From Candidatus Geocrenenecus huangii (GTDB lineage Archaea; Thermoproteota; Nitrososphaeria_A; Caldarchaeales; Wolframiiraptoraceae), in NCBI GenBank assembly GCA_023254095.1, contig JALNLM010000001.1, forward strand, positions 205,660 to 240,564: a DNA stretch of 34,905 nucleotides, read 5' to 3'. The stretch's first letter is position 1, and each line of letters opens with the position of its first letter. Position numbers and translations under genes: made by a program. The notes under the pieces were generated by a model that saw nothing but the letters and a program-made list of their open reading frames with translations, had not been told where the DNA came from and ran no database searches. Below are positions 19,164-34,671 of this stretch, piece by piece.

Positions 19164-20207
19164 ATGGGTGGAAGCCAGTTATCGATAGAGTTGATGTCCG
19201 CTGCATTCAAGCTTGTGAAAGATGTGCTTAAGGTTGATAGGAACGAGAATGTAGTAATAACGATCGATACCACGGGTGATTGGAGGGTTGCCGAAGCCGT
19301 CGCTGAGGCTACATACATACTCGGCGGAAAACCTCTAGTTTTATGGTATCCTTCTCCACCAGCTGTAGGTAAAGCTGCAGACCCGTATCTCCCTCTACTC
19401 CCTCTAACCGAGTGTGTGAAGAATTCTGATGTATGGATCGAGTTTAACAAGAGCTGGCTACTATACTCGACCGTCTATGAGGAAGCGATGAAGATTAACA
19501 GAACTAGGTACATTTGCTTGGTTGGTATGAACGTCGATATGATGGTTAGAACAATAGGTAGAGTTAACATACCTGTGGTATATGAGTTTCAGAGAAGATT
19601 AGCAGACCTAACAAGCAGGGGGAGGAGAGTAAAGATAACATCACCTGCAGGGATGGATGTAGAGTTCGAGAATGATCCAGCTAGACCAGTACTCGTTGAA
19701 GGCGAAGTCTCAGGTCCGGGAGAATACATGTTATTCGGTCAAGTCGACTGGGCTCCGTACGAGGAATCGATAAGCGGCAGGATCGTATTTGATGGATCCA
19801 TGTGGCCCCCGCATGAATTGGGGTTATTGAAAGAGCCCATCATACTAGATGTGGAAAAAGGTAGAATTGTAAAGGTTTCAGGAGGAGCAGAAGCTAGGAT
19901 ATTCGAAAGATGGATAAAGAACTTTAATGATGAGAAGATGTACTGTATAGCTCATCTATCTTACGGGTGTAATCCTGGTGCAAAACTTACTGGAAACATC
20001 CTTGAAGATGAAAGAGTATGGGGAGTTGTAGAATGGGGCATTGGAAGCCAGTCCTCAACATTTAAGGGCAAGCTAGGGTTAGCGAGTTCTCACACAGATG
20101 GGATCTGCTTAAACCCCACGGTAACCATAGATGGAGAGAAAATAATACAAGATGGAGAATACGTGCATCCATCTTTAAGGGAACTTGCATCTAGAATCAG
20201 ACTCTAA
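19164..20207 (+). CDS. Peptidase M29 (aminopeptidase T)-fold metalloprotein with non-canonical ligands
   Basis: ENVVITIDT, ITSPAGMDVEF, GRIVFDGS, GCNPGA, NILEDER and SHTDGICLNPTVTIDG motifs. Confidence 0.8.
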   Translation: MGGSQLSIELMSAAFKLVKDVLKVDRNENVVITIDTTGDWRVAEAVAEATYILGGKPLVLWYPSPPAVGKAADPYLPLLPLTECVKNSDVWIEFNKSWLLYSTVYEEAMKINRTRYICLVGMNVDMMVRTIGRVNIPVVYEFQRRLADLTSRGRRVKITSPAGMDVEFENDPARPVLVEGEVSGPGEYMLFGQVDWAPYEESISGRIVFDGSMWPPHELGLLKEPIILDVEKGRIVKVSGGAEARIFERWIKNFNDEKMYCIAHLSYGCNPGAKLTGNILEDERVWGVVEWGIGSQSSTFKGKLGLASSHTDGICLNPTVTIDGEKIIQDGEYVHPSLRELASRIRL

Positions 20208-20338: not shown

Positions 20339-20435
20339 GCGGCGGTACCCTAGCCAGGTAAGGGGCAGGCCTGGAGAACAGACTAGCCAGCCTGTGGCCC
20401 GCGTGGCCTCGAGGGTTCAAATCCCTCCCGCCGCG
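20339..20435 (+). tRNA. tRNA-Ser(GGA) with 12-nt intron at position 37/38 (20377-20388); CCA not encoded
   Basis: Acceptor stem GCGGCGG/CCGCCGC, discriminator G, anticodon stem CAGGC/GCCTG, spliced loop CT-GGA-GA, long variable arm, T arm GAGGG-TTCAAAT-CCCTC. The 4-bp helix CTGG/CTAG with a CCA bulge forms the splice motif. Confidence 0.93.
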
Positions 20436-20803: not shown

Positions 20804-21235
20804 ATGGCTTATCTCCAAGATTTGTATGAAGTTGGGTATGACTTAGATTATCTAATCAAGAAAATGGTGGCTTCTGGTAGAGGGATGATTGAGACTGTAG
20901 TAGTAGTTTCCAGAGATTTATCTGTACTAGCGTTAGAAGTGGGACATAGTGTATCTTTAGATGAACTTACATCTGCAGGTGCAATTATTATAAGTGCTTT
21001 CTCAAATATTCTTAGAGAAGTAAGTCTGTGTAGATCGGAGAAGATTAGAATAGAGTTAAAAGATAAGAGATACCTAATCATACAATCTTACATAGACTAT
21101 TTTCTAATCTGCATGATTGAGCCCAATTCAAGGTTAGGGTTTATAGATCTAGTTCTAGAGTACTATAAACCCTTGTTATACGAAGTTCTCTATCCTTCAC
21201 ATAATGAAATATCAGAAATAGATAGTTTCACATAA
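20804..21235 (+). CDS. Roadblock/LC7 (MglB-like) domain protein, divergent paralog of 31758..32120
   Basis: helix-VVVVSRD-helix-ELKDKRYLII...PNSRLGFIDLVLE. The start is placed at ATG 20804 by comparison with the paralog; the ORF is open from 20693. Confidence 0.75.
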   Translation: MAYLQDLYEVGYDLDYLIKKMVASGRGMIETVVVVSRDLSVLALEVGHSVSLDELTSAGAIIISAFSNILREVSLCRSEKIRIELKDKRYLIIQSYIDYFLICMIEPNSRLGFIDLVLEYYKPLLYEVLYPSHNEISEIDSFT

Positions 21236-21397
21236 ATGATTATTGAGAATAAATAGGTGTTCATGCAAACTTTAGATTAGGATTTATAAAGTCTGTTATA
21301 GATTATTACCTTTATGATGATATTTCTGATAAGATAATAATTATAGACAAGTATAAGAAATATGACGAATCAGGTAGACTCTGGTTATTTTGATTTA

Positions 21398-22687
21398 CTA
21401 GGTGATAGATGTTTCACATAGTAGTAGTGGGTAGACCTGCTCTTCTATCTTAGTTGGGTTTACTCGGCATAGCGTGATTTCACCTATTATAGAGGGTAAT
21501 TCAAATCCAGAAGTGTCAGAATATGATTTACCCGAAATTTCAGTTACCGCTCTAATTAATTCAATTCGGTATGTTATAGAACCACCAAGTTTAGTAATGT
21601 CGTCGCCAGCATCATCTTCTACAGTTATTTGGAGAACGTCAAAATATGTTTCGCCAGGAAGAATTCTACTAATCTTCTTAGTAGGTGTGAATTCTCGTCC
21701 AAGATTAAGCCCAGAGAGACTTACATCTATTCTTATCTCTACATCTCTTAATGGCTCAGACTGGTTTCCAAGAGAGATCGCGTATGGTATATCTACTGTT
21801 TCTAAATCATTTTTCATCACTACTACCGTGTAGTTGGATATTGTTGGTCTCAGTCTAAGAGGTATCTGTTCTGGCTGTGAGACTTCAAGAGATGCGTCTA
21901 GCCTCACGACCATGTCGTCGAGTACTTCTATAGGCTGTGTTCTGTAGAATGACACTAACTGGCCAGTCATGTAATCATATACTGCTATGGATATAGTGTA
22001 GTTTCCAGGTGCTACCATAAACGTTATCAGAGCATCTCTATCTAAGGATGTTTGAGGTATAAGTTCGTGGGTTCCAAAAGCTTGACATGTCTGGGTAATA
22101 TTCTCAGATACACAACCGTATTCTCCAACGATCTCCACTTTAACTTTGTATTTGTAGCCTACAGTCATGTTTTTCACTAAGATAGCGAGTGTGTAAGGAA
22201 GGTTCCTTGGTCCTATGATATTCTTTGATACGAAGCTGTTTCCTCTTAATGTTATGAACTTAACTCGGACAGTATCATCAATACCTGGATTAAATGATAA
22301 TCTTAAATCTTCGGGAGTAATCACTCTTCTCTGACCAGGAATGATAACCCAGTCTCCATTTTCTCCTTCTCTTACTAATAACCCATATCTATAGCTTTCT
22401 ATATATATCGTGGGGATTGATACTGAAAGTATTCCTGGGTTGAATACTACTACACATACATATAGATCAGACGTCCCCCATCCTCCACAGATTGTCGTGT
22501 AAACTTCCAGTCTTTCGTTAAGCCTCTCCAACTCATATTGAAGTCTCCTATTTGCTTCTTGCATAAATAGTGTTTGTAGACTCTGCATATAGAGGAAGAG
22601 TGGGATAATTATTGCAAATACTATTGTTAATGCTATCGCTGTTCCAATTATCGCAGATATAGCCTTCTTATTCCTCTTCATTCTCAT
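21398..22687 (-). CDS. Large type IV pilin-like protein (class III signal peptide) with Ig-like beta domains
   Basis: KRNKKA|ISAII plus 20-aa hydrophobic helix, amphipathic helix ending ERLEV, VFNPG, VKFITLRGNSF (archaeal pilin-like C-terminal motif), and six Cys. Confidence 0.8.
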   Translation of the reverse strand: MRMKRNKKAISAIIGTAIALTIVFAIIIPLFLYMQSLQTLFMQEANRRLQYELERLNERLEVYTTICGGWGTSDLYVCVVVFNPGILSVSIPTIYIESYRYGLLVREGENGDWVIIPGQRRVITPEDLRLSFNPGIDDTVRVKFITLRGNSFVSKNIIGPRNLPYTLAILVKNMTVGYKYKVKVEIVGEYGCVSENITQTCQAFGTHELIPQTSLDRDALITFMVAPGNYTISIAVYDYMTGQLVSFYRTQPIEVLDDMVVRLDASLEVSQPEQIPLRLRPTISNYTVVVMKNDLETVDIPYAISLGNQSEPLRDVEIRIDVSLSGLNLGREFTPTKKISRILPGETYFDVLQITVEDDAGDDITKLGGSITYRIELIRAVTEISGKSYSDTSGFELPSIIGEITLCRVNPTKIEEQVYPLLLCETSIT

Positions 22688-23301
22688 CCACCTGATTCAC
22701 ATACTGTTGAAGTGTGGGTTATAGTTCTAGTTGTCGTAGTAGTTGCTGAAATAGTCGTTACAATGGTTTGCGTACCCGTTACTGGAATGGTTACAACTCT
22801 ATATTCTGTCGTTGTAGCTGTGACTGGTTGATTAACTGTTTGAGTGCTGGTAGAAGTTGTTGTAGTAGTTCCACCTGTTATAGTTGTCGTAGTCCACCGT
22901 GTGGTAAGAGAAGTTGTTGTTCTTGTCGTCCATATAACGCTAGTAGTTCTTACATATCTTACAGTTCTTAATGTTGTAGTAGTTGTCGTCGTAATAATTC
23001 TAGTTGTCGTGGATGTGCCTGTGGTTACTGTGGTAGTTGTTGTTAAGGTTTGAGTTATCGGCGTTGTTACCTCAACGATAGTTGTAACTGTGACCATACT
23101 TGTCACAGTTCCTGAACTTGTAGTAGTAGTAGATGTTACCGTTTCAGTTATAGTCGTAGTGACGGTGGTCGTAGTGGTAGCTGTTTCAGTCCTTCCCGAG
23201 TATGATTGAGGCAGCAGGCTAGTCAACCCGATCAATAAGGTCGACACCAAGATTAACACTATGATGTAACTCTCAAACTTTCCGGATTGTCCGTTAACCA
23301 C
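22684..23301 (-). CDS. Thr-rich membrane-anchored/secreted stalk protein, possible minor pilin
   Basis: GTG start at 23301 preceded by GGAGGTG and overlapping the upstream stop; one N-terminal hydrophobic helix, then about 165 aa of Thr/Val/Ile-rich sequence. Confidence 0.75.
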   Translation of the reverse strand: MVNGQSGKFESYIIVLILVSTLLIGLTSLLPQSYSGRTETATTTTTVTTTITETVTSTTTTSSGTVTSMVTVTTIVEVTTPITQTLTTTTTVTTGTSTTTRIITTTTTTTLRTVRYVRTTSVIWTTRTTTSLTTRWTTTTITGGTTTTTSTSTQTVNQPVTATTTEYRVVTIPVTGTQTIVTTISATTTTTRTITHTSTVCESGG

Positions 23302-25042
23302 TCTTCCACCTCCTCCCGACAACATATATGAATGGAAGGAATACACCTAGTGAAAATAAGCTCTGTTTTATATCTGAGGATTGGATAATGGGTGAGCCTA
23401 ATGGACATGTCTGCATCATAGTGGTTGTCGTTGTGCTAGTTGTAACGGTTTTGGTGGAGTACACCGTTGATGTAGTTGATTTAGTGATTGTAGTTACGGT
23501 CGTATAAGATGTTGCGGTACTGGTTAAAGTTTGTGTAGTAATCGTCGTTGGTCTCGTTGTGGTAACCGTTGTCGTTATCGTTCTGGTTGATGCAGGTATT
23601 GTGATCGTCGAAGTCCTACTAACCGTCGAAACAGTTGTAACTATCGAAGTACTTGTCCTAGTAGTTGTAACAGTAGCGGTGGCAGTATAACTCGTTCTCG
23701 TAACTGTTCGAGTGGTGGTTATAGTTGTAGTTATTGTGGTTCTAGGCACAGTAGTAGTCTGGGTAGCGTAAAACAAAGTAGTACTTGTGACGGTTCTAGT
23801 TGAAGTTGCTGTCTGAGTATTGGTTATAGTCGTTTCTGGAACTGTTGCAGTCGAGAGAGATGTCGAGGTCGTTGTCGCAGTCTTTGTTACTGTCGATGTC
23901 TCCGTTACAGTCACTATTGGAGATACATCAACTACCTGCACCTCAATACTGTAAACATCACTCATCAATGGATTTCTATCAAACTCTAATCCATAGTCTA
24001 GATATAATTCTCGGAAGCCGCCCAGCCGGACTTCACGGTCGATAACTTCGCTCTTCGCTATCAACACACCATTACAATCATTTACCTTGACCTCGATCTT
24101 ATAGTGTCCATCATCGTTATAGTTTATCGTGAGGAATGCTCCAGTTAATCTAAAAGTATAAGGGCTCCAGATTAGCATAATCTTATCGACATAAGCTGTG
24201 ACATCATTCTTAAAGGTCCAGTGATTTTGAATTAGAGTCCAGTTAGGCGTCCTTACATCGAAGTATATTTCTACTGGGTACTCTAGGCTAGAGCTTGATG
24301 ATAACTCTATAAGTTCTTCTCCACTAGATACTGTTGGAACAATTCTCTCTCCTTCAGCAATATCCCCATCTCGATCTTCTAGCACAGTATGTAAAAGAAC
24401 CTCATCTAGGATAGAAGCTCTTGGAAGCTTTATCTTCAATACATTCGAAATAGTTCCTCCTTCTTCAACAGGATCTACATAATCTATCCAAACCCATTTC
24501 TCATTTATGGGAATAGGACATATGTTCCCAGGAGCTATCGTAAGTTCTTCAGCTTTAAATGATGCGACGCGAAAGAGTATTACGTCAGATGTCGGATTAA
24601 TTAACTCTGGATTTGATGGATCATAAAGATCAGCCGGCATATAATGTACCTGTAATACAACTAAGTCGTCACGGCTGCATCCCGGGCAATCAAAAAAGAT
24701 CTTAGATACTTCTCTCACATCTATCCTTTCAATCTCTCTTATTCCGTAAACTTGGAAAGAATCCCAAGCAATTTCTCCATTACGTAAAGTGATTAGTCTA
24801 AATATTACGACTGGTTCTTTACCAGTATTTCTAATATAAGCTTCTCCCCCTGGATAGATAACGTAGTCTGCAGAAATCATCGAGCGGAGCACGAGAGCTT
24901 CAGCATTAAGTTCTTCAAGAGCTTTAACTCTGTATATACTAGCATATGCTGAAAGAATGCTCCACACAAATAACCCTATACCTAACACCATAGCTACAGC
25001 TATCGTTATTACGAGAGTGTTGCTCTGACCAGTTTTCCTCAT
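23294..25042 (-). CDS. Type IV pilin-like adhesin with Thr-rich stalk and C-terminal hydrophobic anchor
   Basis: MRKTG|QSNT plus hydrophobic helix, YIRNTGKEPV pilin motif, about 170-aa Thr-rich tract, C-terminal LFSLGVFLPFIYVVG-RRWK. Confidence 0.8.
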   Translation of the reverse strand: MRKTGQSNTLVITIAVAMVLGIGLFVWSILSAYASIYRVKALEELNAEALVLRSMISADYVIYPGGEAYIRNTGKEPVVIFRLITLRNGEIAWDSFQVYGIREIERIDVREVSKIFFDCPGCSRDDLVVLQVHYMPADLYDPSNPELINPTSDVILFRVASFKAEELTIAPGNICPIPINEKWVWIDYVDPVEEGGTISNVLKIKLPRASILDEVLLHTVLEDRDGDIAEGERIVPTVSSGEELIELSSSSSLEYPVEIYFDVRTPNWTLIQNHWTFKNDVTAYVDKIMLIWSPYTFRLTGAFLTINYNDDGHYKIEVKVNDCNGVLIAKSEVIDREVRLGGFRELYLDYGLEFDRNPLMSDVYSIEVQVVDVSPIVTVTETSTVTKTATTTSTSLSTATVPETTITNTQTATSTRTVTSTTLFYATQTTTVPRTTITTTITTTRTVTRTSYTATATVTTTRTSTSIVTTVSTVSRTSTITIPASTRTITTTVTTTRPTTITTQTLTSTATSYTTVTTITKSTTSTVYSTKTVTTSTTTTTMMQTCPLGSPIIQSSDIKQSLFSLGVFLPFIYVVGRRWKSG

Positions 25043-25057
25043 ACACTCGACCCCCCA

Positions 25058-26242
25058 TTACCTCTTTTCCTCTATCTTTGTCTCGATATAGTATATCTGG
25101 TCTAATCTTACAGAATTTGAAACAGGGATAAACCTTATCTCAAAGTCATTAATTCTCTCAACCTCGACTGTGATGGTTGAATCCTGTAGTACATCTTTAT
25201 AGCAATCTCTCAGGATAACGCGCACATTGTAATTCCCCTTTTCTCCAAGCCCGAGTTCGAGCATAATTCCCTCAAGCGTTCTATCTATCCTAGACCATTG
25301 TAGATATATGCCGCTAACATGTAATTTTAATCTATCTGGTGTTTCATCTGGTAATCCATCTAGAAACCATTCTCTTTGAATTACATCCCAACTTGAACCT
25401 ACTATTATCCTAAGCGGGGTTTGGAGACCGCCGAAAGTTCCAGAAATACGTTCAAGACGTATTGATGGTACATCAAGGCTTGCAGTCCCCGAGCCAGATC
25501 TACCCGTTTCATCTTCCATGACAATAACTGTGAAAGGCATATCCTCAATTTGATTAGATGCGAGTGAAGGTCTAATATAGACGGCCGGTTCTAGTGTACT
25601 GATACGTCCAAAGATAGCTCCTGTAGCTGGATCAACGTAATCGACCATTATCCAGTTACTAGTAGGTAATGGACACTTCAAAACTTCTACAGCACCGATT
25701 GGTTTAATCATCCTGAATTCGACGTAAAGCATATTACTTACAGATAGTAGGGGATTCTCAACATCATATAAGCTTGATGAAATATACCACACTCTGTAAG
25801 TTAGGTTTTCACCCTTGTGACAGGAAGGACATGTTGGCGCATCTAAGATTTTTTTCTCACCATTTATTAGCTTAGTTAGGTTACCGAATCCATAGGGAGT
25901 TTTTGGAAGCGAATCATAAAACCTATCATTTGAAATAAGTAGTTCGATCCTCGTAATAGTAAGGTCTATTGCTTGTTTAGCAATATTTCTAACATGAATC
26001 TTCGCATATTCTTCCCCATTCTCTTCTCCATATTGTACTGATTCAATGAGGAGTATTCCTCTAAGTAGCTGTATGTTTCTATCCGTCTCTTTCGTCAAAT
26101 CATAAGTAGTATTAGCAAATATTCCAGCAGAATATAACATAAGAAAGATCCCTAAAGCTATAACCATGGAAGAAATAACCGCAACCTCAATAACCGTTAA
26201 ACCCTTCTTACTATTACGTAGTGAAACTATGAGCTTACACAT
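25058..26242 (-). CDS. Type IV pilin-like protein (class III signal peptide with Glu at +5)
   Basis: SKKG|LTVIEVAVISSMVIALGIFL, LLIESV and HVRNIAK motifs; paralogous to the N-terminal part of 23294..25042. Confidence 0.82.
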   Translation of the reverse strand: MCKLIVSLRNSKKGLTVIEVAVISSMVIALGIFLMLYSAGIFANTTYDLTKETDRNIQLLRGILLIESVQYGEENGEEYAKIHVRNIAKQAIDLTITRIELLISNDRFYDSLPKTPYGFGNLTKLINGEKKILDAPTCPSCHKGENLTYRVWYISSSLYDVENPLLSVSNMLYVEFRMIKPIGAVEVLKCPLPTSNWIMVDYVDPATGAIFGRISTLEPAVYIRPSLASNQIEDMPFTVIVMEDETGRSGSGTASLDVPSIRLERISGTFGGLQTPLRIIVGSSWDVIQREWFLDGLPDETPDRLKLHVSGIYLQWSRIDRTLEGIMLELGLGEKGNYNVRVILRDCYKDVLQDSTITVEVERINDFEIRFIPVSNSVRLDQIYYIETKIEEKR

Positions 26243-26255
26243 TACCGAAGTCTAA

Positions 26256-26290
26256 AATATATAAAGATTATACATAATATATAAGGGTTT
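26256..26290 (-). promoter_or_regulatory. BRE/TATA promoter of the pilin-like operon (two TATA-like copies)
   Basis: Minus strand reads GAAACCCTTATATATT; TTATATATT occurs twice, 20 bp apart (26256-26264 and 26276-26284). Confidence 0.55.
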
Positions 26291-26573
26291 CATTGATCAC
26301 TTTAAAACTTCTTGGTCAATAATACGTCAGGATTTTTAGAAGTTTCGTGGTTAGTTTGTTTTTAGACATTTAAAGACATCAACTTGGACGACATGATTGG
26401 CATAACATTCCTCTAAACTATAAGTTTCTCCAAGATGCTTAGAAGCTTTGAAAGGGAACTAGCCGATGGGGTAGCTTATCGACTATAAGTATTTGGTTTT
26501 GAGAATTGCCCCATATAATTAGAGTAATTATACTGCTAAAAGATGTAGTCAGGTTTTATTATCATCTACTTTA

Positions 26574-27405
26574 CTACCGACCTCTATCTGGCCATAGTAG
26601 CCATACAATCATGAATCCTTGAGCAATACTGTCTAGCACCATTTCTACTCCATGTCCAAGTCTAAGCTCGATCGGCCAAGCTACGTTGACTAGCTGTGGG
26701 ACTACAGCACCAATAATTGCTAGTAGTGCTCCTAGATATAGGCCAAGCCTCCATCTACTCAGCCTGATCAACGCTATTAGTGGAGTAAAAGTCAATGCAT
26801 ATATTAGTCCACGTGCCAACTCGACGGGTACTATTACTTCTGGACTAGGAATAACGAGGCCCAGCCCGAGCTCGGGGTTATCATAGAAGGGGCCAGTTAT
26901 TGGAGAGAATATGAAGCCGAAGAAATAATATATCGGGACGAAGAGCACGGATGCAAGAGCGAATCGCCAAGGCCAATGGAGGCTGCTACGCTTCGAGAAA
27001 TATCTCTTAACTTCGCTGAATAGGTCCTTACTGGCTTTTCCCGGTTTAAAGAGAACTCCAACAGCTATCGCTATTATCAGATTGACGATTAGTTGTTCCA
27101 TGAGAAGAAATAGTTGGAATGATGTCGGATACGTAGTGAATAGTGCGACGTCAGGAACTCCTATCAGATACGAGAACATGTACAATGTTAGGAACAGTAT
27201 AATTATTCTCTGAGCAAGTGGAATTTCAAGCATTTCTTCTTAATATTTTCTTCTTAATATCTTAGCGTATCTTAGCGGTCGTAATTAAGCCCACCGCCAG
27301 ACCAAATGAAGAAGTAACCATCGTAGATAGGAAATACAAGAAACCGATAAGAAATACCCTCCATAATATTTCTAAACCAAACTTCGATACAACTACACAG
27401 ATTAC
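26574..27405 (-). pseudogene. Multi-pass membrane protein of unknown function, probably disrupted at its 5' end (intact portion 26574..27233)
   Basis: The 219-aa ORF has about 6 TM helices. The upstream stop-to-stop frame 27262..27405 encodes LWRVFLIGFLYF, resembling the internal WPWRFALASVLFVPIYY. Tandem duplications lie at the junction. Confidence 0.55.
27233..27277. repeat. Two abutting perfect tandem duplications (14 bp x2 and 10 bp x2)
   Basis: TTTCTTCTTAATAT at 27233-27246 and 27247-27260; TATCTTAGCG at 27258-27267 and 27268-27277. Confidence 0.9.
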
Positions 27406-27642
27406 TCATTGCGGCCCATTCATATAAACGTTTCAATCAGATTATTGATGACTCTCCAGCAATTTGCTAAGGTGCTCTCAGCCATCATCTCTGTATCTGC
27501 TACAGAACTTTAACATCCCTCTTAAGCTCCTAGAACAACAACCTAGTCTTCCCTTTCTTCACTACTGATAGGGAACCTCTAATCTATAGAGTACGTTACC
27601 ATGTTATCAAGTGATTTTCAAAGACCTTGATTAATCTTCTTA

Positions 27643-28011
27643 CTAGTCTAATACGTCTTTTAGTTTTTCTACCGTATCTTTCACATCTATGATCAATAAG
27701 CCTATCTTTGCTTTAGGGCTCATCAATATTATTAGAGATGCTTTCTTTCCTGGGTATAGTATTGCTCCACCCTTGTCTGTTAATAGTATGAGGAAGTTCA
27801 GTTTACCCAATGCAACTTGATCTGAGACTCTTTCAACAATACTCTGGAGAGCTGAGAACGCGGCTGAAGCACGTTCTTCATCGACACCGCTCGGTAAGCT
27901 ACTTTCTATAACTAATCCTTCAGTACTTATTATTGCTGCACCAGAAACGTCTGGATTACCTCTGATTAATTCACTTATTACGCTTCTTATCTTCTCAGCA
28001 CGAGTAGACAT
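27643..28011 (-). CDS. Roadblock/LC7 (MglB-like) domain protein
   Basis: Canonical pattern PDVSGAAIISTEGLVIES...DEERASAAFSAL...AKIGLLI; own BRE/TATA (GAAACAAATATATATA) and AGGTGA SD. Confidence 0.92.
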   Translation of the reverse strand: MSTRAEKIRSVISELIRGNPDVSGAAIISTEGLVIESSLPSGVDEERASAAFSALQSIVERVSDQVALGKLNFLILLTDKGGAILYPGKKASLIILMSPKAKIGLLIIDVKDTVEKLKDVLD

Positions 28012-28307
28012 TCTTTAATCACCTTGATAACACATTTAGTTATTTCTTCTCTATATATATTTGTTTCTTTTGAAGCGATTAAACCTTCTTCGAACTTGTC
28101 CTACGAATTACTTAGTATTCTTAATTATGTCGATTAATGCCCATTTTATTATTTCTTTGTGGATATATTACTTAGATATGGCCAATATCCTCCATCATTG
28201 TTAACAATCAGACGCGTTACTATTTCTTGTAGGGTAGCATACTCCTTCTCCAAGGACAGCGTCTAGGTTTCTGACGTTAGAACAAAATAATTCTAATAGT
28301 TAGGTTC

Positions 28308-28907
28308 TTATTCAATGCTTTTTCCTAGTAATTCTTCATATGTCTTCTTCATTTTTCTATAAGTTTCATCATCTATCTTCTTCTCCTTGTATAGTTTCTC
28401 TAAGTTGGATAATTTTTCACTTATCGTCTGTCTAAAAACATTCGTTAACGGGGCTTCTTTTAATTCAATCTCTTCTCTAGCCTCTCGAATCTGCGTTTCT
28501 GCAAGGCTTTTGGCTGTTGCTGCTAGGTGATACAGTATCTGTTCTGCACTGGTGTATTTGTTCGCTGTAAGAAGTGTATGTAGGTCTGAAGCAATGGTTA
28601 CAGCATGTTCTCCGGTATAGATGTTTTCACCTATTTTAGCCGCTGGGATAGTAGTCAACCCAAATTTCGTCCTCATCGCTTCTTGATAATCCCTTGGTGA
28701 AGTCCATATCTCGCATTCCAGTTCTTCACTTCTCCCAAGCGCTGAAGGTAGTGAAACCCTAACATTAGTTACAGCGAAAGCTGGCCAGACATCTCGAGTA
28801 GACATTTTTGCTATATCTTTGACTTCGCCGACCATTCCATTTAAGATTTTTAAGAGCTTAATAGACAAATCATCTTCAGAAACGTAGAAGGTTATCTTTC
28901 TCGGCAT
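28308..28907 (-). CDS. Hypothetical protein: thioredoxin-like fold without CxxC plus C-terminal SHOCT-like helical motif
   Basis: KITFYVS-helix ... KFGLTTIPAAKIGENIYTG (cis-Pro loop pattern); C-terminus LSNLEKLYKEKKIDDETYRKMK. Confidence 0.6.
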   Translation of the reverse strand: MPRKITFYVSEDDLSIKLLKILNGMVGEVKDIAKMSTRDVWPAFAVTNVRVSLPSALGRSEELECEIWTSPRDYQEAMRTKFGLTTIPAAKIGENIYTGEHAVTIASDLHTLLTANKYTSAEQILYHLAATAKSLAETQIREAREEIELKEAPLTNVFRQTISEKLSNLEKLYKEKKIDDETYRKMKKTYEELLGKSIE

Positions 28908-28982
28908 GTAGTATTATGTTTCAAACATGTTTTTAAAGTTTATGAAAGCTCGGCTAGAGGTTAGTACCTAAGTGATGTTTGG

Positions 28983-30791
28983 TTAAACGCTTCTCGCTGC
29001 TTCTCTCAATCTAACATTCATTGATTCAATGAGTATTGTTCCTTCTTCTCTCAATTGTTTTAATGCTTCAACTATTACATCTTTCGGCAACGGTATCTTG
29101 ACGAAGACTTGGTAGTATGGTACTGTCCCGTTATTTGCTTTAAGAAGCTCAAGAATGTATCCTATAGCTACTTCAATTTTTTCAACGGGTATTTCTCTAG
29201 GTTTAGGTGGAGGTATGGGGATGTAGATTTCTTCAACCTTGATTCCTAGCTCTCTAATCAACCTCTCAGGATCCGTATAGTAGGAATAGATTATCCTCGC
29301 TACTTCATTTATCTCTTTCACGTCTTTCTTAACCATCCAGTCTAGCAATGCTTTCCTCTTAAGCACTTCTCTAATCATATCTGTCTTCTTCTTCCCCCAC
29401 CTCAGAGCTATCTGATCTAGAAGTACGCTTTTATCAAATTCAACTACGAAGATATCGCTTAATGGATCCCATTCAGCGATTGTAATGTACTTCTCGTAGT
29501 CCGCTATCTCCCATACATATCTCATTCTTCTACCGAATGTAGCTCCTTTAAATGGTTTAGGCAACAGTGTTCTCTCGACTAGGCAGAGAACGTCGAGTAG
29601 GGGTATATGGCTTGGAGGAATATTCATCGGAGGGCTTGTAAGCCTCCTCACCGCAGTCTCAATACTCTCAGCGTGGACTGTGGATAGTCCGCCATGGCCT
29701 GTCGCAATCGCTTGGAATAACACGAATGCCTCTTCACCTCTTATCTCTCCTACTATCAAGTAGTCGGGGCGGTATCTCAGACTCATCCTCACTAGGTCGT
29801 ATAATGTTATTTCTCCTGTCTTCGCGGTTCCTAGACCGTAGCTCTCACGGGTTACGAATCTAACCCAGTTATCCGTAGGCATGTTTAGCTCAGCGGTCTC
29901 CTCACATGTTATTATCTTCATTCTAGGCTTAATGAAGCATGATAGAGCATTCAGCAGTGTTGTTTTACCGCTTCCAGTTGCTCCAGCAACCATTATGTTT
30001 GCTTTATTCTCAAGCAGTATCCAAAAGTATGCGGCAAGATCTGGACTTAGTACATTGCTCTGTAGTAGCTCAATTATACTGAACGGTTTCTCTCTGAATT
30101 TTCTTATCGTGAAGGTTGATCCACGTGGTGAAACTTCTTCTCTAAATGTTGCCGCCAACCTATGCTTACCATATATCATAGCGTCAAGCATTGGGAAGGC
30201 GGATGAGATATGTTTTCCAGCTTTATGTGCTAGCTGTATTATGAAGTCGTCTAGAACCGCTCTATCAGTGAAGGTTATGTTTGTGGGTAGGCTCTCGTAA
30301 TCTCTATGCCAAACATATATCGGAACATTCACTCCATCGCAGGATATATCTTCTATTCTGTAGTCTTCCATGATTACGTTGAGGATGCCGAAGCCGAGTA
30401 GATCCCTCTCAAGATAGTAAAAGAGCTTCTTCTTTGAGTCCTCGCTGACTACTCCTATCCCTCTACCATACTTCTTTAGAAGCTTGTCAGCTGAGTTGAG
30501 GAGTACCTTCTTTACTTCTTGTTCTTCTCCAACAGTTGGAGGTTCAAGTTCTTTTGCAAGAAAATCTTTTAATCGCTCTAATGCTTTAGCTTCTTGCTCG
30601 GTTAGTTCTACTTCTTTAACGAAGTATTGAGGTTCCAATACTATTCCTGGTTTAGCTGCGATTACCACTTCAGCGAATTCTTCTCTTACTGGATAACGTT
30701 GAAGAACCTCGTAATCCGGGGGCACGGGGTCTACCTTTATCCCTTTATCTTTCTTGACTTCTTCTTTCTCCTCCTTCTTGAATAGGGGCAT
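28983..30791 (-). CDS. Type II/IV secretion system (pilus assembly) ATPase, ArlI/TadA/VirB11 family, with C-terminal extension
   Basis: IEDISCDG, TFTIRKF, Walker A GATGSGKT, Asp box CEETAEL, Walker B RPDYLIVGEIRG, His box GHGGLSTVH. Confidence 0.95.
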   Translation of the reverse strand: MPLFKKEEKEEVKKDKGIKVDPVPPDYEVLQRYPVREEFAEVVIAAKPGIVLEPQYFVKEVELTEQEAKALERLKDFLAKELEPPTVGEEQEVKKVLLNSADKLLKKYGRGIGVVSEDSKKKLFYYLERDLLGFGILNVIMEDYRIEDISCDGVNVPIYVWHRDYESLPTNITFTDRAVLDDFIIQLAHKAGKHISSAFPMLDAMIYGKHRLAATFREEVSPRGSTFTIRKFREKPFSIIELLQSNVLSPDLAAYFWILLENKANIMVAGATGSGKTTLLNALSCFIKPRMKIITCEETAELNMPTDNWVRFVTRESYGLGTAKTGEITLYDLVRMSLRYRPDYLIVGEIRGEEAFVLFQAIATGHGGLSTVHAESIETAVRRLTSPPMNIPPSHIPLLDVLCLVERTLLPKPFKGATFGRRMRYVWEIADYEKYITIAEWDPLSDIFVVEFDKSVLLDQIALRWGKKKTDMIREVLKRKALLDWMVKKDVKEINEVARIIYSYYTDPERLIRELGIKVEEIYIPIPPPKPREIPVEKIEVAIGYILELLKANNGTVPYYQVFVKIPLPKDVIVEALKQLREEGTILIESMNVRLREAARSV

Positions 30792-30804
30792 CTATACCCT
30801 CCCT

Positions 30805-30830
30805 ACTGATAAATAATTACTTATATCAGT
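30805..30830. promoter_or_regulatory. Inverted repeat between TATA box and SD of the ATPase gene (candidate operator)
   Basis: ACTGATA-N12-TATCAGT; on the minus strand it lies directly after GAAAAGAATTTAAG and before GGGAGG. Confidence 0.4.
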
Positions 30831-31158
30831 CTTAAATTCTTTTCCTCTTATTAAGATCTTGTGGAGATTTGTTAGAATGGTTGCCTATACATTGGTTGAA
30901 AGATTTATCTGATTATGCTAATCTTCTACGAAACTGGGTTCCTTGGCCAAGATATTGTAAACTTATCCTCGTATCTTTAGCGACTACATTATCACGCCAT
31001 TAAATGAATTCTTCTTACTAGATCTCTGTTCTTTTCAAGATCTTTCTAGGCTGTCCTATAACTTATCTTGCCGCCAAGATAGCGTATTACCTATACTGTA
31101 TGCTTGAATCCAGAGCTGATAAAGTAATTTAAGGAAGTGTAAACTTATAATTACTAGT

Positions 31159-31755
31159 ATGGATGGGATACTGGATGCTTTACCGAATATCTTGTTAAGC
31201 CCATTCCTAGTCTTTATTCTTATCGTAGCGGCCATTGCCTTGTCTGTTATCTCATTAGTCTTTACACTCATCTTGGCTAGAAAGGTATCTGTAACTCTAA
31301 CGTCAATAACGACTACTCCGCCTCCTACGCCTGTCTCGACCGCCCCATCCACTAAGCCTTCAACAGGAGTAGTAGGTAAACCTACATCTACTGATGTCAT
31401 TAGGATTACAAGTGGGCTTGAATCTCTTGAAGAGATTTCTTCAGCTCTAGCTGTTAATTCTATTCTTCTCTTCAATCTAGCAGGTATGTCTATTGAGGCC
31501 CATAATATTAAAGATGAGGAAAAGCTCGCGGCTATACTTGCAGATATCGTTGCATCTTTTAGGAAGAACGGCTTCCCAGCCGAGACGATCTCCATAAAGG
31601 ATAGTATTCAAGGTTATATACTATCTGTTACTAAGGTAGGCGAGATGGAGGTCTACGCATTGGTCCTCGGAGAAGCAGATGCTATTGTCGACGTTGAAGA
31701 AGCTCGCCAGCTTCTAAAAAATTTCATTACGTCAATAGTTAAGAAGGGAGGATAA
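31159..31755 (+). CDS. Membrane-anchored Roadblock-like protein (TM, Pro/Thr linker, Roadblock-like domain)
   Basis: Hydrophobic helix at about residues 11-40 followed by RK, then TTTPPPTPVSTAP linker, then SILLFNLAGMSIEA...DEEKLAAILA, matching the Roadblock strand-G-strand/helix pattern. Confidence 0.68.
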   Translation: MDGILDALPNILLSPFLVFILIVAAIALSVISLVFTLILARKVSVTLTSITTTPPPTPVSTAPSTKPSTGVVGKPTSTDVIRITSGLESLEEISSALAVNSILLFNLAGMSIEAHNIKDEEKLAAILADIVASFRKNGFPAETISIKDSIQGYILSVTKVGEMEVYALVLGEADAIVDVEEARQLLKNFITSIVKKGG

Positions 31756-31757
31756 TC

Positions 31758-32120
31758 ATGGCCACAGCTTATGAGACTTTCCAGGTTCTTGTTGAAAGCA
31801 TTATGGTTAGTAGTAAGGGATGGGTTGACGTAGTGACTATAGTTTCTCAGGATGGCGCACCTATTACGTTTAGCGCCAACATAGATTTTAACCCTGAGTA
31901 TATTGCTGCAGCTACAGCGGCTATCGGTGGTGCGACCTCTGCTGTTGTAGAGTTGTTGAATTCGAAGGGTTTCGATAAGGTTGATGTACAGTTGAAGGAT
32001 AAGAGGTACTTGCTGATTAGGATGTATAAAGACCACTACGTTATCTGTGTTACAAAGCCTAATCCGAATCTTGGTTTCATAAACCTAATACTTGAGGCAT
32101 TCCTCTCTGGTAAGCCATGA
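31758..32120 (+). CDS. Roadblock/LC7 (MglB-like) domain protein
   Basis: VDVVTIVSQDGAPI...PEYIAAATAAI...PNLGFINLILE; GGAGG SD; ATGA overlap with the GTPase gene. Confidence 0.9.
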   Translation: MATAYETFQVLVESIMVSSKGWVDVVTIVSQDGAPITFSANIDFNPEYIAAATAAIGGATSAVVELLNSKGFDKVDVQLKDKRYLLIRMYKDHYVICVTKPNPNLGFINLILEAFLSGKP

Positions 32121-32671
32121 AGATATTTAAGATCCTTATCACTGGACCGTATAATTCAGGTAAAACTACATTTATCAAGACTATATGTAGTAATGCCCTC
32201 ACAACAGATAAGAAGGTTTCAAGTGATGAGCTGGTGAAGTCCTCTACTACCGTCGCCCTCGACTTCGGCCTCATAGAGATAGGCGGGTATAGAGTTAGAT
32301 TGTTCGGGACGCCGGGTCAGAGCAGGTTTCATTTCATGTGGCGTGCACTCTCCATAGGTATGGATGGATACGTCTTCATGGTTGATAGTAGCGACCCTAT
32401 GAGCTTTAATGAGGCCCTCCACATTTATATGTTTTTCAGGTCTATGCATCCATATACTAGTCATGTAGTTGCAGCAAACAAGTATGACAAAGAAAATAAG
32501 CTAAGCATAGATACTATTAGGTCTGCTTTGAAGATCCCAGAGCATATCCCGATATATCCTACAGTAGCCTATAATAGAGAAAACGTTGTAAAGGTATTGG
32601 AAGCACTAATAGAGCTTATACAGAGCTCATCTATTATTATCAAGTATAAAGATTCTAAGAAGAGTGTTTGA
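32117..32671 (+). CDS. MglA-like small Ras-superfamily GTPase
   Basis: G1 GPYNSGKTT, G2 TTVALDFG, G3 GTPGQSRF, G4 NKYD, G5 TVA; directly downstream of a Roadblock gene. Confidence 0.92.
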   Translation: MKIFKILITGPYNSGKTTFIKTICSNALTTDKKVSSDELVKSSTTVALDFGLIEIGGYRVRLFGTPGQSRFHFMWRALSIGMDGYVFMVDSSDPMSFNEALHIYMFFRSMHPYTSHVVAANKYDKENKLSIDTIRSALKIPEHIPIYPTVAYNRENVVKVLEALIELIQSSSIIIKYKDSKKSV

Positions 32672-32895
32672 AGTTCTCTAGATGCTCACGCGTATTCTTC
32701 TATAACTGTTCTTGTGCAAGATCAACAATCCTAGATCTGTATTCCATTATCAACAGTGCTAGTGCGGACCTGTTTTGTGAGTGATTCTCTCAAAGTTTGG
32801 TAAATCTCTTGTTATCTTCTTCGTAAATCTAAGATCATACCGTAGGACACTGACAGTAAATTTTTATATATTTGGTGAACAGGGATCTTGTCAGT

Positions 32896-34671
32896 ATGGG
32901 GTTCCTAGAAAGTTTTAGCGGATTTTCCTATGCTAGTTTTAGAGGGTTGGGATTACGTATTCTCAGGTTGTTTCCAGGGATTTCCGCTAAACTTGAAAGT
33001 GCTGGGAAACGTATTCACCCTGAAGCTTACGCAGCTATCGTTGCAAGCTTAACTGTTTTATCATTGATTGGGGCCGGTGTCGGCTCAGTACTGGTCTTCC
33101 TCTTTACTGGTAGCTTGCTCTTCTCGTTATTGTTGTTTATTATCCCGGCTCTCGTCTTCATTATGGGCGTTCTATATCCTTATGGTGAGGCCTCATCTGT
33201 ATCTAGTGTTCTTGAGAGTGAGGTGCCGTACGCTGCTACTTATCTAGCCGTTATGGCCACAGGAGGGATCGCTCCATACACTAGTCTTAGCCGTATCGCT
33301 AAAGGAGAGCTTATGCCTAATATCGCTAAAGCTGCGAGGAATGCTGAGATCGCTGTTAAGACTGGTGGGATAGACCCTGTATCAGCTCTGGAGAATATGG
33401 CTAAAGGTGTTCCATCTAAGGATTACCGTGACTTGATTATGGGCTATGCTTCTACGTTGAGGAGTGGTGGAGATGTTGTACACTTCTTGATCAGGAAGAC
33501 TGAGCAGATCTTTGATTCTAGGATGGGTAAGATGAGGATTATTGGTGAGAGGATGGGGATGCTTATGGAGGCTTACGCAGCTATTACGATGATGCTCTCC
33601 CTAGTCGTCTACATCGTCTATATTGTTTCTAGAGCTATGCCGAGCGAGTTCGTTACATTACCCTCTGAGCAATTCGTAATCTTCGCGTATCTAGTCATGC
33701 CTCTCCTCGCACTCGTCTTCTTGTACCTCGCCGATATTACTCAGCCCAAGTATCCTATGACCGATACTCGCCCATACAGAATATTCTACTTAACGATACC
33801 TTTTGCATCTATCGTTTTAATGTTGTTTGTTGTTCCATTCTTTTTAGATGCTTTAAGATTTATTCCGCCGTTTGATGCTAGTAGCCAGCTTATAGTAGAG
33901 TTGAGGAAGGCTATGGGGCTTGTTCAAGGCTACGAGTCTAGTATTGGTCTCTGCATCTTCTTCATGGTTTTGTTCGCTCCAGGCATGGTCTTCTATGAAA
34001 AGTACGGTAAGGAGAGTATAGGTATCCTTCATGGCATGACCTTGTTTTTGAGGGATTTGACAGAGGCCAGGAAGACCGGCATGAGCCCCGAGAAATGTAT
34101 TATTACTTTGAGGGATAGACCCTACGGCGGGTTTACTAAGCATTTGAAGATTATTGCCAGGCAGATCGGTTGGGGCGAGCCGCTCAGGAAAGTTTACCAA
34201 GATTTTGTTAAGAGGGTTCACGGATGGATGAGTAGGGCGAGCTTGTATGTCTTGATAGATGCTATAGATGTTGGGGGAGGCGCTCCTGAGACCTTCGACG
34301 TCTTAGCTACGTTCATGGAGAATCTGGAGGAGGTCGAGAAGCAGAAGAGGTCTACCCTTCTACCTCTAATGATGATCCCGTACATGACAGCTATAATGCT
34401 AGTCGTGGTAGTCGTCATCCTCGTAAGCTTTATGCGTAACCTACTCGAGATAGCCAGGATCTACATATCCTTGGCAGAGTTCATCCACTTCTTTCTCCCA
34501 CCAGTAATCTTGATAGCGGTGATAAGCGGCCTTGTAGCAGGGAAAGTCTCAGCAGGAATTATCGCTGCAGGGTTCAAGCATGCGTTTATACTCTCGATAG
34601 TATCATTCATAGCCGTATGGCTTTCAGGAACAGTCTCGGTACAGATATTCTCAACGCCAATGATGAGTTAA
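32896..34671 (+). CDS. Type IV pilus/T2SS-F membrane platform protein (TadC/ArlJ-like, two F domains)
   Basis: Two repeats: EVPYAATYLAVMATGG...STLRSGG and FLRDLTEARKTGMS...AIDVGG, each followed by TM helices; terminal GLVAGK...AGFKH. Start ATG 32896 is about 25 nt after TTTATATA; the ORF is open from 32872. Confidence 0.92.
   Translation: MGFLESFSGFSYASFRGLGLRILRLFPGISAKLESAGKRIHPEAYAAIVASLTVLSLIGAGVGSVLVFLFTGSLLFSLLLFIIPALVFIMGVLYPYGEASSVSSVLESEVPYAATYLAVMATGGIAPYTSLSRIAKGELMPNIAKAARNAEIAVKTGGIDPVSALENMAKGVPSKDYRDLIMGYASTLRSGGDVVHFLIRKTEQIFDSRMGKMRIIGERMGMLMEAYAAITMMLSLVVYIVYIVSRAMPSEFVTLPSEQFVIFAYLVMPLLALVFLYLADITQPKYPMTDTRPYRIFYLTIPFASIVLMLFVVPFFLDALRFIPPFDASSQLIVELRKAMGLVQGYESSIGLCIFFMVLFAPGMVFYEKYGKESIGILHGMTLFLRDLTEARKTGMSPEKCIITLRDRPYGGFTKHLKIIARQIGWGEPLRKVYQDFVKRVHGWMSRASLYVLIDAIDVGGGAPETFDVLATFMENLEEVEKQKRSTLLPLMMIPYMTAIMLVVVVVILVSFMRNLLEIARIYISLAEFIHFFLPPVILIAVISGLVAGKVSAGIIAAGFKHAFILSIVSFIAVWLSGTVSVQIFSTPMMS

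Follow-up and report, generated by a model that had tools for sequence, protein, structure and literature searches.

Why should the genes for a type IV pilus (T4P) of an archaeon stand together with those for a Ras-like GTPase and a whole set of Roadblock proteins? The question is raised by a stretch of 34,905 nucleotides from Candidatus Geocrenenecus huangii, in the following termed the window, which corresponds to C13:205660-240564 in an archaeal genome of 1.6 Mb and 96% completeness. The host family, Wolframiiraptoraceae (Caldarchaeales, formerly 'Aigarchaeota'), is abbreviated f1, its sister families f2, f3 and f4, and g1 to g5 denote genera within f1. The answer that we favor, at a probability of roughly 0.55, is that the GTPase and its Roadblock partners form a module that acts as a membrane-tethered switch of the MglA/MglB type and is functionally coupled to the pilus machine, which we infer from gene order, homology and the co-occurrence or co-absence of the genes. 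The locus as a whole can be described as a non-archaellar type IV filament (T4F) machine, made up of an ATPase, a TadC platform and three large pilin-like proteins, with a small-GTPase switch that was taken up in the Wolframiiraptoraceae.

The pilus cluster occupies window positions 20804-34671, about 14 kb. From 30791 down to 21398, the minus strand carries the genes for the assembly ATPase, the orphan protein H, the Roadblock protein RblG, a 219-aa membrane protein, the pilin-like proteins PilX3 and PilX2, a threonine-rich open reading frame (ORF) and PilX1 (ORF calls and Pfam). Divergent from the ATPase gene over 367 bp, the plus strand encodes TMRbl, a Roadblock protein with a transmembrane (TM) anchor, the soluble RblK, the GTPase and TadC. 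A gap of 2 nt lies between the genes for TMRbl and RblK, those for RblK and the GTPase overlap by 4 nt, and 200 nt separate the GTPase gene from that for TadC. RblA, another Roadblock protein, is encoded at the far end of the cluster (20804-21235). A secretion ATPase and a TadC/PilC-type platform, the combination by which T4F loci are recognized, occur together here (matches to T2SSE and T2SSF). The original prediction, which had been made from the DNA letters alone, had proposed pilin-like genes, the assembly ATPase and the platform within 14 kb, a divergent arrangement of the ATPase and TadC genes split by a TM-Roadblock/Roadblock/GTPase operon, and two further Roadblock genes beside the pilin-like genes. 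ORF calls and Pfam place all components of the machine where they had been named, the gene order is as described, and the two further genes, for RblA (blastp and profile search) and RblG (Pfam), do belong to the Roadblock family. Beyond this, the locus holds H (28308-28907), the 219-aa membrane protein (26574-27233) and the threonine-rich ORF (22684-23346). A search of all 4839 ORFs of the genome with family hidden Markov models (HMMs) identified four Roadblock-family genes, H and a single MglA-type GTPase, every one of them within this 14-kb stretch. With none of these genes elsewhere in the genome, their clustering in the pilus locus is more than chance.

The GTPase matches the Pfam families Arf (9.9e-12) and Ras (1.5e-7) as well as the NCBIfam model small_GTP (45.5 bits; cut-off 42.5), and its best relatives of solved structure are MglA of Myxococcus xanthus (2.9e-8) and Thermus thermophilus (9.4e-8), ahead of Sec4, Arl2 and Sar1. 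An alignment of the window's protein with 34 relatives (35 sequences) revealed a G1 motif GxxxxGKT, an invariant pair of threonines (T44, T45), GTPGQ and NKxD. The G3 motif, GTPGQ, is devoid of the canonical aspartate; G64, P66 and G67 are invariant and Q68 is nearly so. Where M. xanthus MglA has its arginine finger, a threonine is found in a pairwise alignment. In the passages of Wuichet and Sogaard-Andersen (2014) that deal with MglA classification, groups 2-5 are characterized by a GTPGQ-type G3 motif, a threonine where group 1 has its arginine finger, and an MglB partner with an Asp-Gly pair. The features of these groups that we find here are the single domain, the G1, G2 and G4 motifs, GTPGQ, the exchange of arginine for threonine and an adjacent Roadblock gene. 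With this G3 motif, this threonine and MglA proteins as the best solved relatives, the earlier designation of the GTPase as MglA-like holds. The same passages describe archaeal MglA (group 4) as occurring almost only in Euryarchaeota and without conserved neighbors (Wuichet and Sogaard-Andersen 2014), and for the former reason the present GTPases, which come from Thermoproteota, may form a further archaeal MglA group. As a separate observation, a KaiC-like N-terminal domain is fused to an MglA-like GTPase in proteins of about 390-400 aa from family relatives (L050:9231-10436, L051, L052 and L053) and from a metagenome-assembled genome (MAG) of the Archaeoglobaceae (L138:876-2042); in each case, a gene for an RblG-like Roadblock protein follows and T4P genes are not found nearby.

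The four Roadblock proteins are of unequal clarity. RblG matches Robl_LC7 (5.5e-11), its best match in the PDB is a Roadblock protein from Thorarchaeota (7f8m, 1.5e-11), and it carries Glu-Gly at the position of the Asp-Gly pair, with the glycine being invariant in the alignment. RblK scores 18.9 bits with the Pfam Roadblock model, below the cut-off of 23, and its family profile aligns with that of the RblG family at a probability of 98.6% (E 1.1e-15, hhalign). D32 and G33 of RblK are nearly invariant and represent the Asp-Gly pair of MglB proteins coupled to MglA of groups 2-5; the pairing of the RblK and GTPase genes is kept in f1, f2 and family f28, and RblK is probably the cognate MglB of the GTPase. 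RblA has no Pfam match and is a paralog of RblK according to blastp (8e-19, 32% identity over 105 aa) and the RblK-family HMM (6e-41). One ortholog was found, in relative L029, and in the RblK tree the two appear as a long-branched, genus-specific pair. For TMRbl, Pfam yielded no match, a blastp comparison with RblG yielded nothing (E 0.30), and a comparison of its family (19 relatives aligned) with the two Roadblock families by hhalign was weak (E 0.0057 and 0.023, probabilities of 2-6%). Because sequence comparisons are weak, TMRbl was assigned by fold. The AlphaFold model (mean pLDDT 70.6; 75-87 in the majority of 10-residue blocks within the domain) consists of a TM helix (residues 15-48), a disordered linker (49-86) and an alpha-beta-beta-alpha-beta-beta-beta-alpha domain, for which the best Foldseek matches in the PDB are to MglB (E 9e-6, TM score 0.63 by target). 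Matches with E values between 7e-6 and 4e-4 comprise MglB of M. xanthus and T. thermophilus, an Asgard Roadblock protein and Roadblock domains of Rag/Ragulator proteins. As judged from the model, TMRbl carries an MglB-like Roadblock fold. A conserved Arg-Lys directly follows the TM helix, and of the Asp-Gly pair only the glycine is kept. Because basic residues follow the helix, the positive-inside rule suggests that the domain is cytoplasmic.

How firmly is the module tied to the pilus genes? Loci of relatives were collected as up to 20 kb around GTPase matches and searched with the window proteins and family HMMs. The GTPase is present in 23 of 41 relatives (f1, 16/24; f2, 6/6; f3, 0/4; f4, 0/6) and in 65 of the 401 genomes of a phylum sample. 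In 17 of 18 loci from f1, its gene lies 0-921 nt from that for the ATPase or TadC; in the eighteenth (L043), on a contig of 8.8 kb, it abuts PilX genes. The order seen in the window (TMRbl-RblK-GTPase-TadC) recurs in g1, g3 and g5. In g2, a leftward TMRbl-RblK-TadC set is followed by a rightward ATPase gene, a leftward set of TMRbl', RblK' and GTPase genes, and rightward H and RblG genes, which makes two TMRbl-RblK pairs. In g4, a leftward ATPase gene is divergent from TMRbl-RblK-TadC, and the locus contains no gene for the GTPase, H or RblG; the GTPase is not found anywhere in the g4 genomes (0/5 among the relatives, 0/7 in the phylum sample; completeness 93-99%). Across 4-5 genera, the linkage has thus withstood rearrangement into at least three gene orders. 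Among 25 genomes from f1, 16 contain the GTPase and TadC, one contains the GTPase only (G022, whose contig starts at the ATPase gene), two contain TadC only (both g4) and six contain neither. When g4 is set aside (n = 20), the two are concordant in 19 genomes, with both present in 16 and neither in three (completeness 97, 84 and 78%), and the remaining one has the GTPase only. In a quick tree of RblK, the copies from g4 form a group with those of g2 that are encoded beside TadC (SH-aLRT 91), and the g4 pattern would fit, with moderate support, a duplication followed by loss of the GTPase-linked set. The neighborhood survey that had been proposed as a check thus favors the original prediction within the family: the linkage between GTPase and pilus genes is not absent in related genomes and is conserved through rearrangements.

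Outside f1, the same survey stands in part only. On the positive side, T4P genes are near the gene for a single-domain GTPase in 3 of 34 archaeal loci. L100, from a Thermofilaceae MAG, combines TadC-ATPase with RblK-RblG-GTPase and a TMRbl-like gene, with 1.7 kb between pilus gene and GTPase gene (Pfam); in L083, an ATPase gene lies 2.0 kb from the GTPase gene at a contig end; and in L079, TadC and ATPase genes lie 6.6 kb away. In a quick tree of the GTPases, the deep branches of which are poorly supported, none of the three groups with f1 or with another of the three, and independent recruitment of the GTPase to T4P loci appears likely. On the negative side, the linkage is missing from sister family f2 and is not seen in the DNA fetched for 31 of the 34 loci, a point to which we return below.

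Bacterial genomes offer a parallel. Among the best 80 matches to the GTPase profile in a collection of species genomes, 59 are bacterial, mostly from Actinomycetota including Coriobacteriia. These 59 loci contain at least one PilB-like ATPase in 47 cases and at least two in 36, PilC in 32, a Roadblock protein in 46 and a PATAN domain (DUF4388) in 51. An example is a chromosome from the Coriobacteriia (L158:5295-15038), on which Pfam identifies PilB (T2SSE plus MshEN), Roadblock, DUF4388/PATAN, GTPase, an unassigned protein, PilB and PilC in this order; 46 further loci are found among L105-L168. The bacterial GTPases of the GTPGQ type are 40-46% identical to that of the window. Like the archaeal locus, these bacterial modules place a GTPGQ GTPase and a Roadblock protein between the genes for T4P ATPase and platform; they differ by the added PATAN protein and a second or third PilB/PilT-like ATPase, and neither a TM-anchored Roadblock protein nor H is part of them. 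PATAN domains bind PilB1 and the N-domain of PilC in Synechocystis, according to the work on that organism, and occasionally neighbor MglA, according to passages of Wuichet and Sogaard-Andersen (2014). PATAN (DUF4388) was not found in the window's genome. A literature search yielded no description of the bacterial Roadblock-PATAN-MglA arrangement inside PilB/PilC loci.

By gene context, a regulatory link between the module and the pilus machine is well supported. The mechanism that we propose is as follows. TMRbl would pair with the soluble RblK and provide an MglB-like platform that is tethered at the membrane beside TadC. This platform would bind the MglA-type GTPase, which has no arginine finger of its own, and set its nucleotide state. 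In its GTP-bound form, the GTPase would allow or place pilus assembly via the ATPase/TadC motor, with or without H and RblG as intermediaries. These two, whose genes immediately follow that for the ATPase on its strand, could constitute a second sub-complex on the ATPase side. A pole-defining role as in Myxococcus is not supported by the present data and would be speculation; for the original idea that a polarity module positions or times pilus assembly, support is lacking as well.

A number of observations weigh against functional coupling. Families f2 and f4 possess orthologous TadC proteins (62-66% identical), encoded adjacent to and convergent with the ATPase and with PilX genes nearby, and these T4P loci contain no genes for Roadblock proteins, GTPase or H; the GTPase was not found at all in the f3 (0/4) and f4 (0/6) genomes. 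Since orthologous pilus loci exist without it, the module appears to be an accessory of the pilus machine, which does not need it. In f2, the intact TMRbl-RblK-GTPase operon is located away from the pilus locus in 8 of 9 loci (in G025, GTPase and TadC are 620 kb apart) and is flanked by housekeeping genes such as those for a tRNA intron endonuclease, RNase HII, a proteasome subunit and a PhoU-like protein. In Thermofilaceae, the order TMRbl-RblK-GTPase-RblG is encountered, and the neighbors of the stand-alone module in f2 and in families f25 and f28 include no shared functional partner, only housekeeping genes. Most of the other archaea with the trio likewise have it on its own next to genes of this kind. 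Because the trio occurs apart from pilus genes in f2 and Thermofilaceae, we consider the module an older self-standing unit that was, as the comparison of genomes indicates, placed into the pilus locus in the Wolframiiraptoraceae. In 31 of the 34 archaeal loci from outside the family, no T4P gene is present in the DNA fetched, an absence that says little for part of them because some contigs are short. As the family genomes are kin, the 17 of 18 linked loci may furthermore go back to a single insertion. Since g4 keeps the Roadblock pair without any GTPase, Roadblock proteins may act on the machine alone. Finally, H, a putative member of the second sub-complex above, is without recognizable fold or relatives.

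It follows from the stand-alone operons that the trio could be a general membrane-anchored switch, serving cell polarity, division, or envelope or membrane processes, that came to lie in the pilus locus of one family by rearrangement, where it is perhaps expressed together with the pilus genes without acting on the machine. The position beside housekeeping genes in 8 of 9 f2 loci and in Thermofilaceae, the 31 of 34 loci without nearby T4P genes and the pilus loci without the module in f2, f3 and f4 would all be accounted for. We nevertheless deem this explanation unlikely, for the linkage has withstood repeated changes of gene order across 4-5 genera, the locus also contains H and two additional Roadblock genes, of which the rest of the genome is free, GTPase and TadC co-occur or are co-absent, and a linkage to T4P genes is encountered again in three further lineages of archaea as well as in 47 of 59 loci from bacteria.

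The g4 genomes bring up another explanation, namely that the pilus machine works with the Roadblock proteins themselves, which would serve TadC or the ATPase in a structural or regulatory capacity, and that the GTPase is a dispensable add-on tuning them. It would agree with an old proposal that Roadblock proteins regulate NTPases and with passages of Makarova, Koonin and Albers (2016), in which Roadblock genes and not GTPases are named in archaeal T4P loci. TMRbl-RblK lies directly upstream of TadC in g4, where the GTPase was found in 0/5 and 0/7 genomes, and g2 has a separate TMRbl-RblK pair dedicated to TadC, with which the g4 copies group (SH-aLRT 91). Set against this are a GTPase that is kept in four of five genera and translationally coupled to RblK (4-nt overlap in the window), an RblK with the Asp-Gly pair typical of MglB proteins coupled to MglA, and a Roadblock pair that outside the family almost always comes with a GTPase, all of which makes this second explanation quite unlikely. 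That the machine is a type IV filament device of another sort, be it a bindosome-like surface structure or a system for adhesin display, with the module controlling its assembly, we regard as very improbable. It would agree with the large size (394-582 aa) and threonine-rich parts of the only pilin-like genes, which belong to no Pfam family, with the failure to recognize a small PilA-type pilin, and with scores of ATPase and TadC below the cut-offs of every named NCBIfam system. On the other side, major archaeal pilins are often encoded elsewhere, as stated in passages of Makarova, Koonin and Albers (2016), and with regard to the switch this explanation is the same as the coupling that we favor.

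Functional coupling also accommodates a wider view of the trio. TMRbl, RblK and a GTPGQ-type GTPase are conserved as an operon in Caldarchaeales and Thermofilaceae, and one may tentatively see in them the archaeal counterpart of membrane-tethered platforms such as Ragulator-Rag, with the pilus motor as direct effector in the Wolframiiraptoraceae; taken in full, this is doubtful. The likeness lies in membrane-tethered dimers of Roadblock fold that serve as a platform for small GTPases and is an analogy, not membership. Rag GTPases have a fused C-terminal Roadblock domain and form heterodimers, and their anchor, LAMTOR1, is lipidated. The window GTPase, in contrast, is a single-domain protein of 184 aa, the only one of its kind in the genome, and the membrane anchor here consists of a TM helix in one of the Roadblock proteins.

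Among characterized systems, MglA/MglB of M. xanthus and T. thermophilus resembles the locus in that a Ras-like GTPase, the closest solved relative of the one studied here, is encoded beside a Roadblock protein, and as in the Myxococcus/Thermus module (MglB, MglC), more than one Roadblock paralog is present. Parts of the Myxococcus and Thermus literature tie MglA to type IV pili. MglA of the Myxococcus type (group 1) is described by Wuichet and Sogaard-Andersen (2014) with TVPGQ and an intrinsic arginine finger, whereas the window GTPase has GTPGQ and no arginine finger; further differences are the membrane anchor on one Roadblock protein, the position of the genes inside the pilus locus and the archaeal host. 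Of the partners in Myxococcus-type polarity circuits (PATAN, RomR/RomX, SgmX, RomY), the PATAN domain was searched for in the genome and not found. The Streptomyces conservon (CvnA-D), according to the literature, likewise has a GTPGQ GTPase of MglA group 2 and a Roadblock protein in a membrane-associated complex. It is anchored by a histidine kinase and has no pilus link; as the window locus encodes no kinase, we rejected an assignment as conservon.

With respect to the machine itself, the archaeal T4P loci of clade 4, as described in passages of Makarova, Koonin and Albers (2016) for subclade 4A of the Desulfurococcales, also combine ATPase, TadC and several untraceable pilin-like parts. The ATPase of the window is recognized by T2SSE (7.7e-35), shows a weak match to PilB3_C, reaches 348 bits with the NCBIfam model for FlaI (cut-off 550) and is below the cut-off for BasE as well. 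Residues ~540-602 form a C-terminal extension past the PilB3_C-like region; the equivalent tail in a Thermofilaceae relative (L100:6461-8479) is a winged helix-turn-helix (HTH_24, 8.9e-7). The genome encodes four T2SSE ATPases, one of which is a true FlaI on contig C11. TadC matches T2SSF in two stretches (1.6e-23) and UpsF and BasF below their NCBIfam cut-offs; besides ArlJ, it is the only clear T2SSF protein of the genome. An archaellum was rejected as an identity for the locus on the basis of the FlaI score and of a separate archaellum operon (C11:14648-21556 in the window's genome, G000; locus L169), which contains genes for archaellin, ArlG, two or three small proteins, FlaH, FlaI and ArlJ. 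FlaI (661 bits) and FlaH of this operon exceed their cut-offs, ArlJ, ArlG and archaellin remain below theirs, and no Roadblock or GTPase gene is found beside it. Since this archaellum operon is complete, the organism probably swims as well as making pili.

The absence of a second, PilT-like ATPase from the window had been taken as a reason to think that the module switches a single ATPase. The observation is correct and the argument does not carry, as the absence is not special to this locus: archaeal T4P systems are not known to possess PilT, and a missing second ATPase therefore says little. In five relatives, the orthologous pilus ATPase has an in-frame insert of ~485 aa near residue 364 (L028:1242-4499, L029:5115-8375, L034:3448-6735, L035:2129-5416, L094:10531-13809). 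Both of the two inserts examined match Intein_splicing and one also LAGLIDADG. The window ATPase is free of an intein; in hot-spring DNA runs, the region concerned displays joints and loose ends.

PilX1, PilX2 and PilX3 (21398-26242) fall into no Pfam family, and none exceeds the cut-off of a curated pilin model. Their N-termini are conserved, with basic residues, Gly/Ala and a hydrophobic stretch, a prepilin-like pattern. In PilX1, this N-terminus (basic, Gly/Ala, ISAIIGT, hydrophobic) is kept in 14 of 16 among the PilX1-type ORFs listed and matches the NCBIfam model for the UpsB pilin N-terminus below cut-off (7.9e-6). PilX2 has orthologs in T4P loci of f1, f2 and f4. PilX3, a paralog of PilX2, has a conserved N-terminus KKG-LTVIEVAV, and its nearest cluster in the Atlas, at 0.84 a lead only, is named 'Archaeal Type IV pilin N-terminal domain-containing protein'. 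A small PilA-type pilin was not recognized in the locus. A class III signal peptidase is encoded elsewhere in the genome (Peptidase_A24, 32.9 bits, above cut-off, contig C23). The threonine-rich ORF, with DUF5336 at 0.031 as sole Pfam match and no tblastn match in the relatives' loci, is not certain to be a real gene. The 219-aa membrane protein belongs to no Pfam family and has no tblastn match in any relative's locus, i.e., it is confined to this genome; in relatives, PilX3 directly follows RblG without it. All features of the cluster are compiled in Table 1.

Table 1. Genes and candidate promoter elements of the pilus cluster, given in window coordinates.
Feature	Position	Strand	Basis
RblA, soluble Roadblock paralog beside pilin-like genes	20804..21235	+	blastp and RblK-family HMM
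PilX1, pilin-like protein of 429 aa	21398..22687	-	no Pfam family; sub-threshold UpsB match; N-terminus
Threonine-rich ORF with N-terminal hydrophobic stretch	22684..23346	-	ORF call
PilX2, pilin-like protein of 582 aa, threonine-rich C-terminal part	23294..25042	-	prepilin-like N-terminus; orthologs
PilX3, pilin-like protein of 394 aa	25058..26242	-	N-terminus; paralog of PilX2
Multi-pass membrane protein of 219 aa	26574..27233	-	no Pfam family
RblG, soluble Roadblock/LC7 protein	27643..28011	-	Robl_LC7, 5.5e-11
H, orphan protein of 199 aa	28308..28907	-	AlphaFold model; no Pfam family
T4P assembly ATPase (PilB/FlaI superfamily) with C-terminal extension	28983..30791	-	T2SSE, 7.7e-35
AATTTAAGA, candidate TATA-like element, 39-47 nt upstream of ATPase start	30830..30838	-	conservation in the genus
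AATTTAAGG, candidate TATA-like element, 25-33 nt upstream of TMRbl start	31126..31134	+	conservation in the genus
TMRbl, single-pass TM anchor, Pro/Thr-rich linker of ~40 aa, predicted Roadblock-fold domain	31159..31755	+	AlphaFold and Foldseek
RblK, soluble Roadblock protein, probable cognate MglB	31758..32120	+	hhalign, 98.6%; D32-G33
MglA-type small GTPase, GTPGQ class, 184 aa	32117..32671	+	Pfam, NCBIfam, PDB matches, motifs
TadC/PilC-type platform protein	32872..34671	+	T2SSF, 1.6e-23, two domains

Protein H deserves separate mention. Its AlphaFold model (pLDDT 83.9) comprises an alpha/beta domain (residues 1-114), a helix of ~54 residues (121-174) and a C-terminal helix. H falls into no Pfam family and Foldseek found no match under 1e-3 in the PDB (TM scores ~0.2); no family is assigned to it, as the Atlas leads, to thioredoxin/glutaredoxin (0.79) and to KaiB-like proteins (TM score 0.40), are sub-threshold. 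Relatives amount to only 33 clusters among 5.8 billion proteins, and the four clusters with source names read 'hypothetical protein' or, for one weak match, EF-G. In tblastn searches of the relatives' loci, H was found only in family loci that also hold the GTPase, and RblG follows H in 10 of the 12 family loci with H. By its position, H would be co-transcribed with the ATPase. A complex prediction for H, GTPase and ATPase, with the ATPase as scored partner and every chain entered as an alignment, gave 0.20 and 0.00 against a mark of 0.32, values which, obtained without controls, give no verdict either way.

Among the matches listed, 20 runs from 11 studies, nearly all of them hot-spring metagenomes, hold the stretch at least in part. 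In two RNA libraries of one study, contigs of 181-511 nt match PilX1-3, RblG, H, the ATPase, TMRbl, the junction of RblK and GTPase (31979-32200) and TadC. These contigs are short, parts not covered mean nothing, and strand, transcript ends and expression level are unreadable from them. Because DNA carry-over is possible in such libraries, they give a weak hint that the locus is transcribed. The motif AATTTAAGR faces both divergent operons at TATA-like distances within a block that is invariant in six genomes of the genus; its three matches in the window are not significant alone, as 20 of 100 shuffles reach three.

The first 20 kb of the window harbor ordinary genes, among them those for an oligopeptide ABC transporter, a TruB/Cbf5-like pseudouridine synthase, an M20 peptidase and a racemase. 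A gene for tRNA-Ser (97 nt, 20339-20435, anticodon AGA as printed) borders the pilus locus ~370 nt upstream of RblA, and a 347-aa ORF without Pfam family (19164-20207) lies just upstream of it. A mobile island was considered and dismissed: no integrase was seen in Pfam scans of the window proteins, and so nothing points to one.

Roadblock genes in archaeal T4P loci are known. Makarova, Koonin and Albers (2016) devote one sentence to arCOG02603 in such loci; the only 'GTPase' in their text is FtsZ, and their main text mentions no small GTPase, TM-anchored Roadblock protein or H in T4P loci. The main text of a T4F census (Sivabalasarma and Albers 2026) contains 0 occurrences of GTPase, Roadblock, MglA or MglB. 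Pili are not mentioned in passages of the work on Asgard GTPases and Roadblock proteins (Tran et al. 2024), nor are GTPases or Roadblock proteins in passages of the Caldarchaeales MAG paper. A full-text search covering main texts outside subscription journals found no paper linking an archaeal small GTPase to a T4P locus. Roadblock genes have accordingly been on record there since 2016, while a small GTPase is not mentioned in these main texts.

The control of the many type IV filament systems of archaea is largely unknown. Small GTPases and Roadblock proteins, both common among archaea, are part of the discussion of how eukaryotic GTPase signaling arose, and no cellular role has been shown for them. 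The locus offers a testable set of partners in a small genome, consisting of one GTPase, four Roadblock proteins, one orphan, one ATPase and one platform, and Wolframiiraptor may be a relative amenable to cultivation. A general coupling is suggested by the parallel loci of bacteria. If the wider view of the trio, with the pilus motor as direct effector, is true, an archaeal small GTPase would for the first time have an effector assigned to it, and GTPase control of type IV filaments would be a principle that is shared by, or was reinvented in, Bacteria and Archaea.

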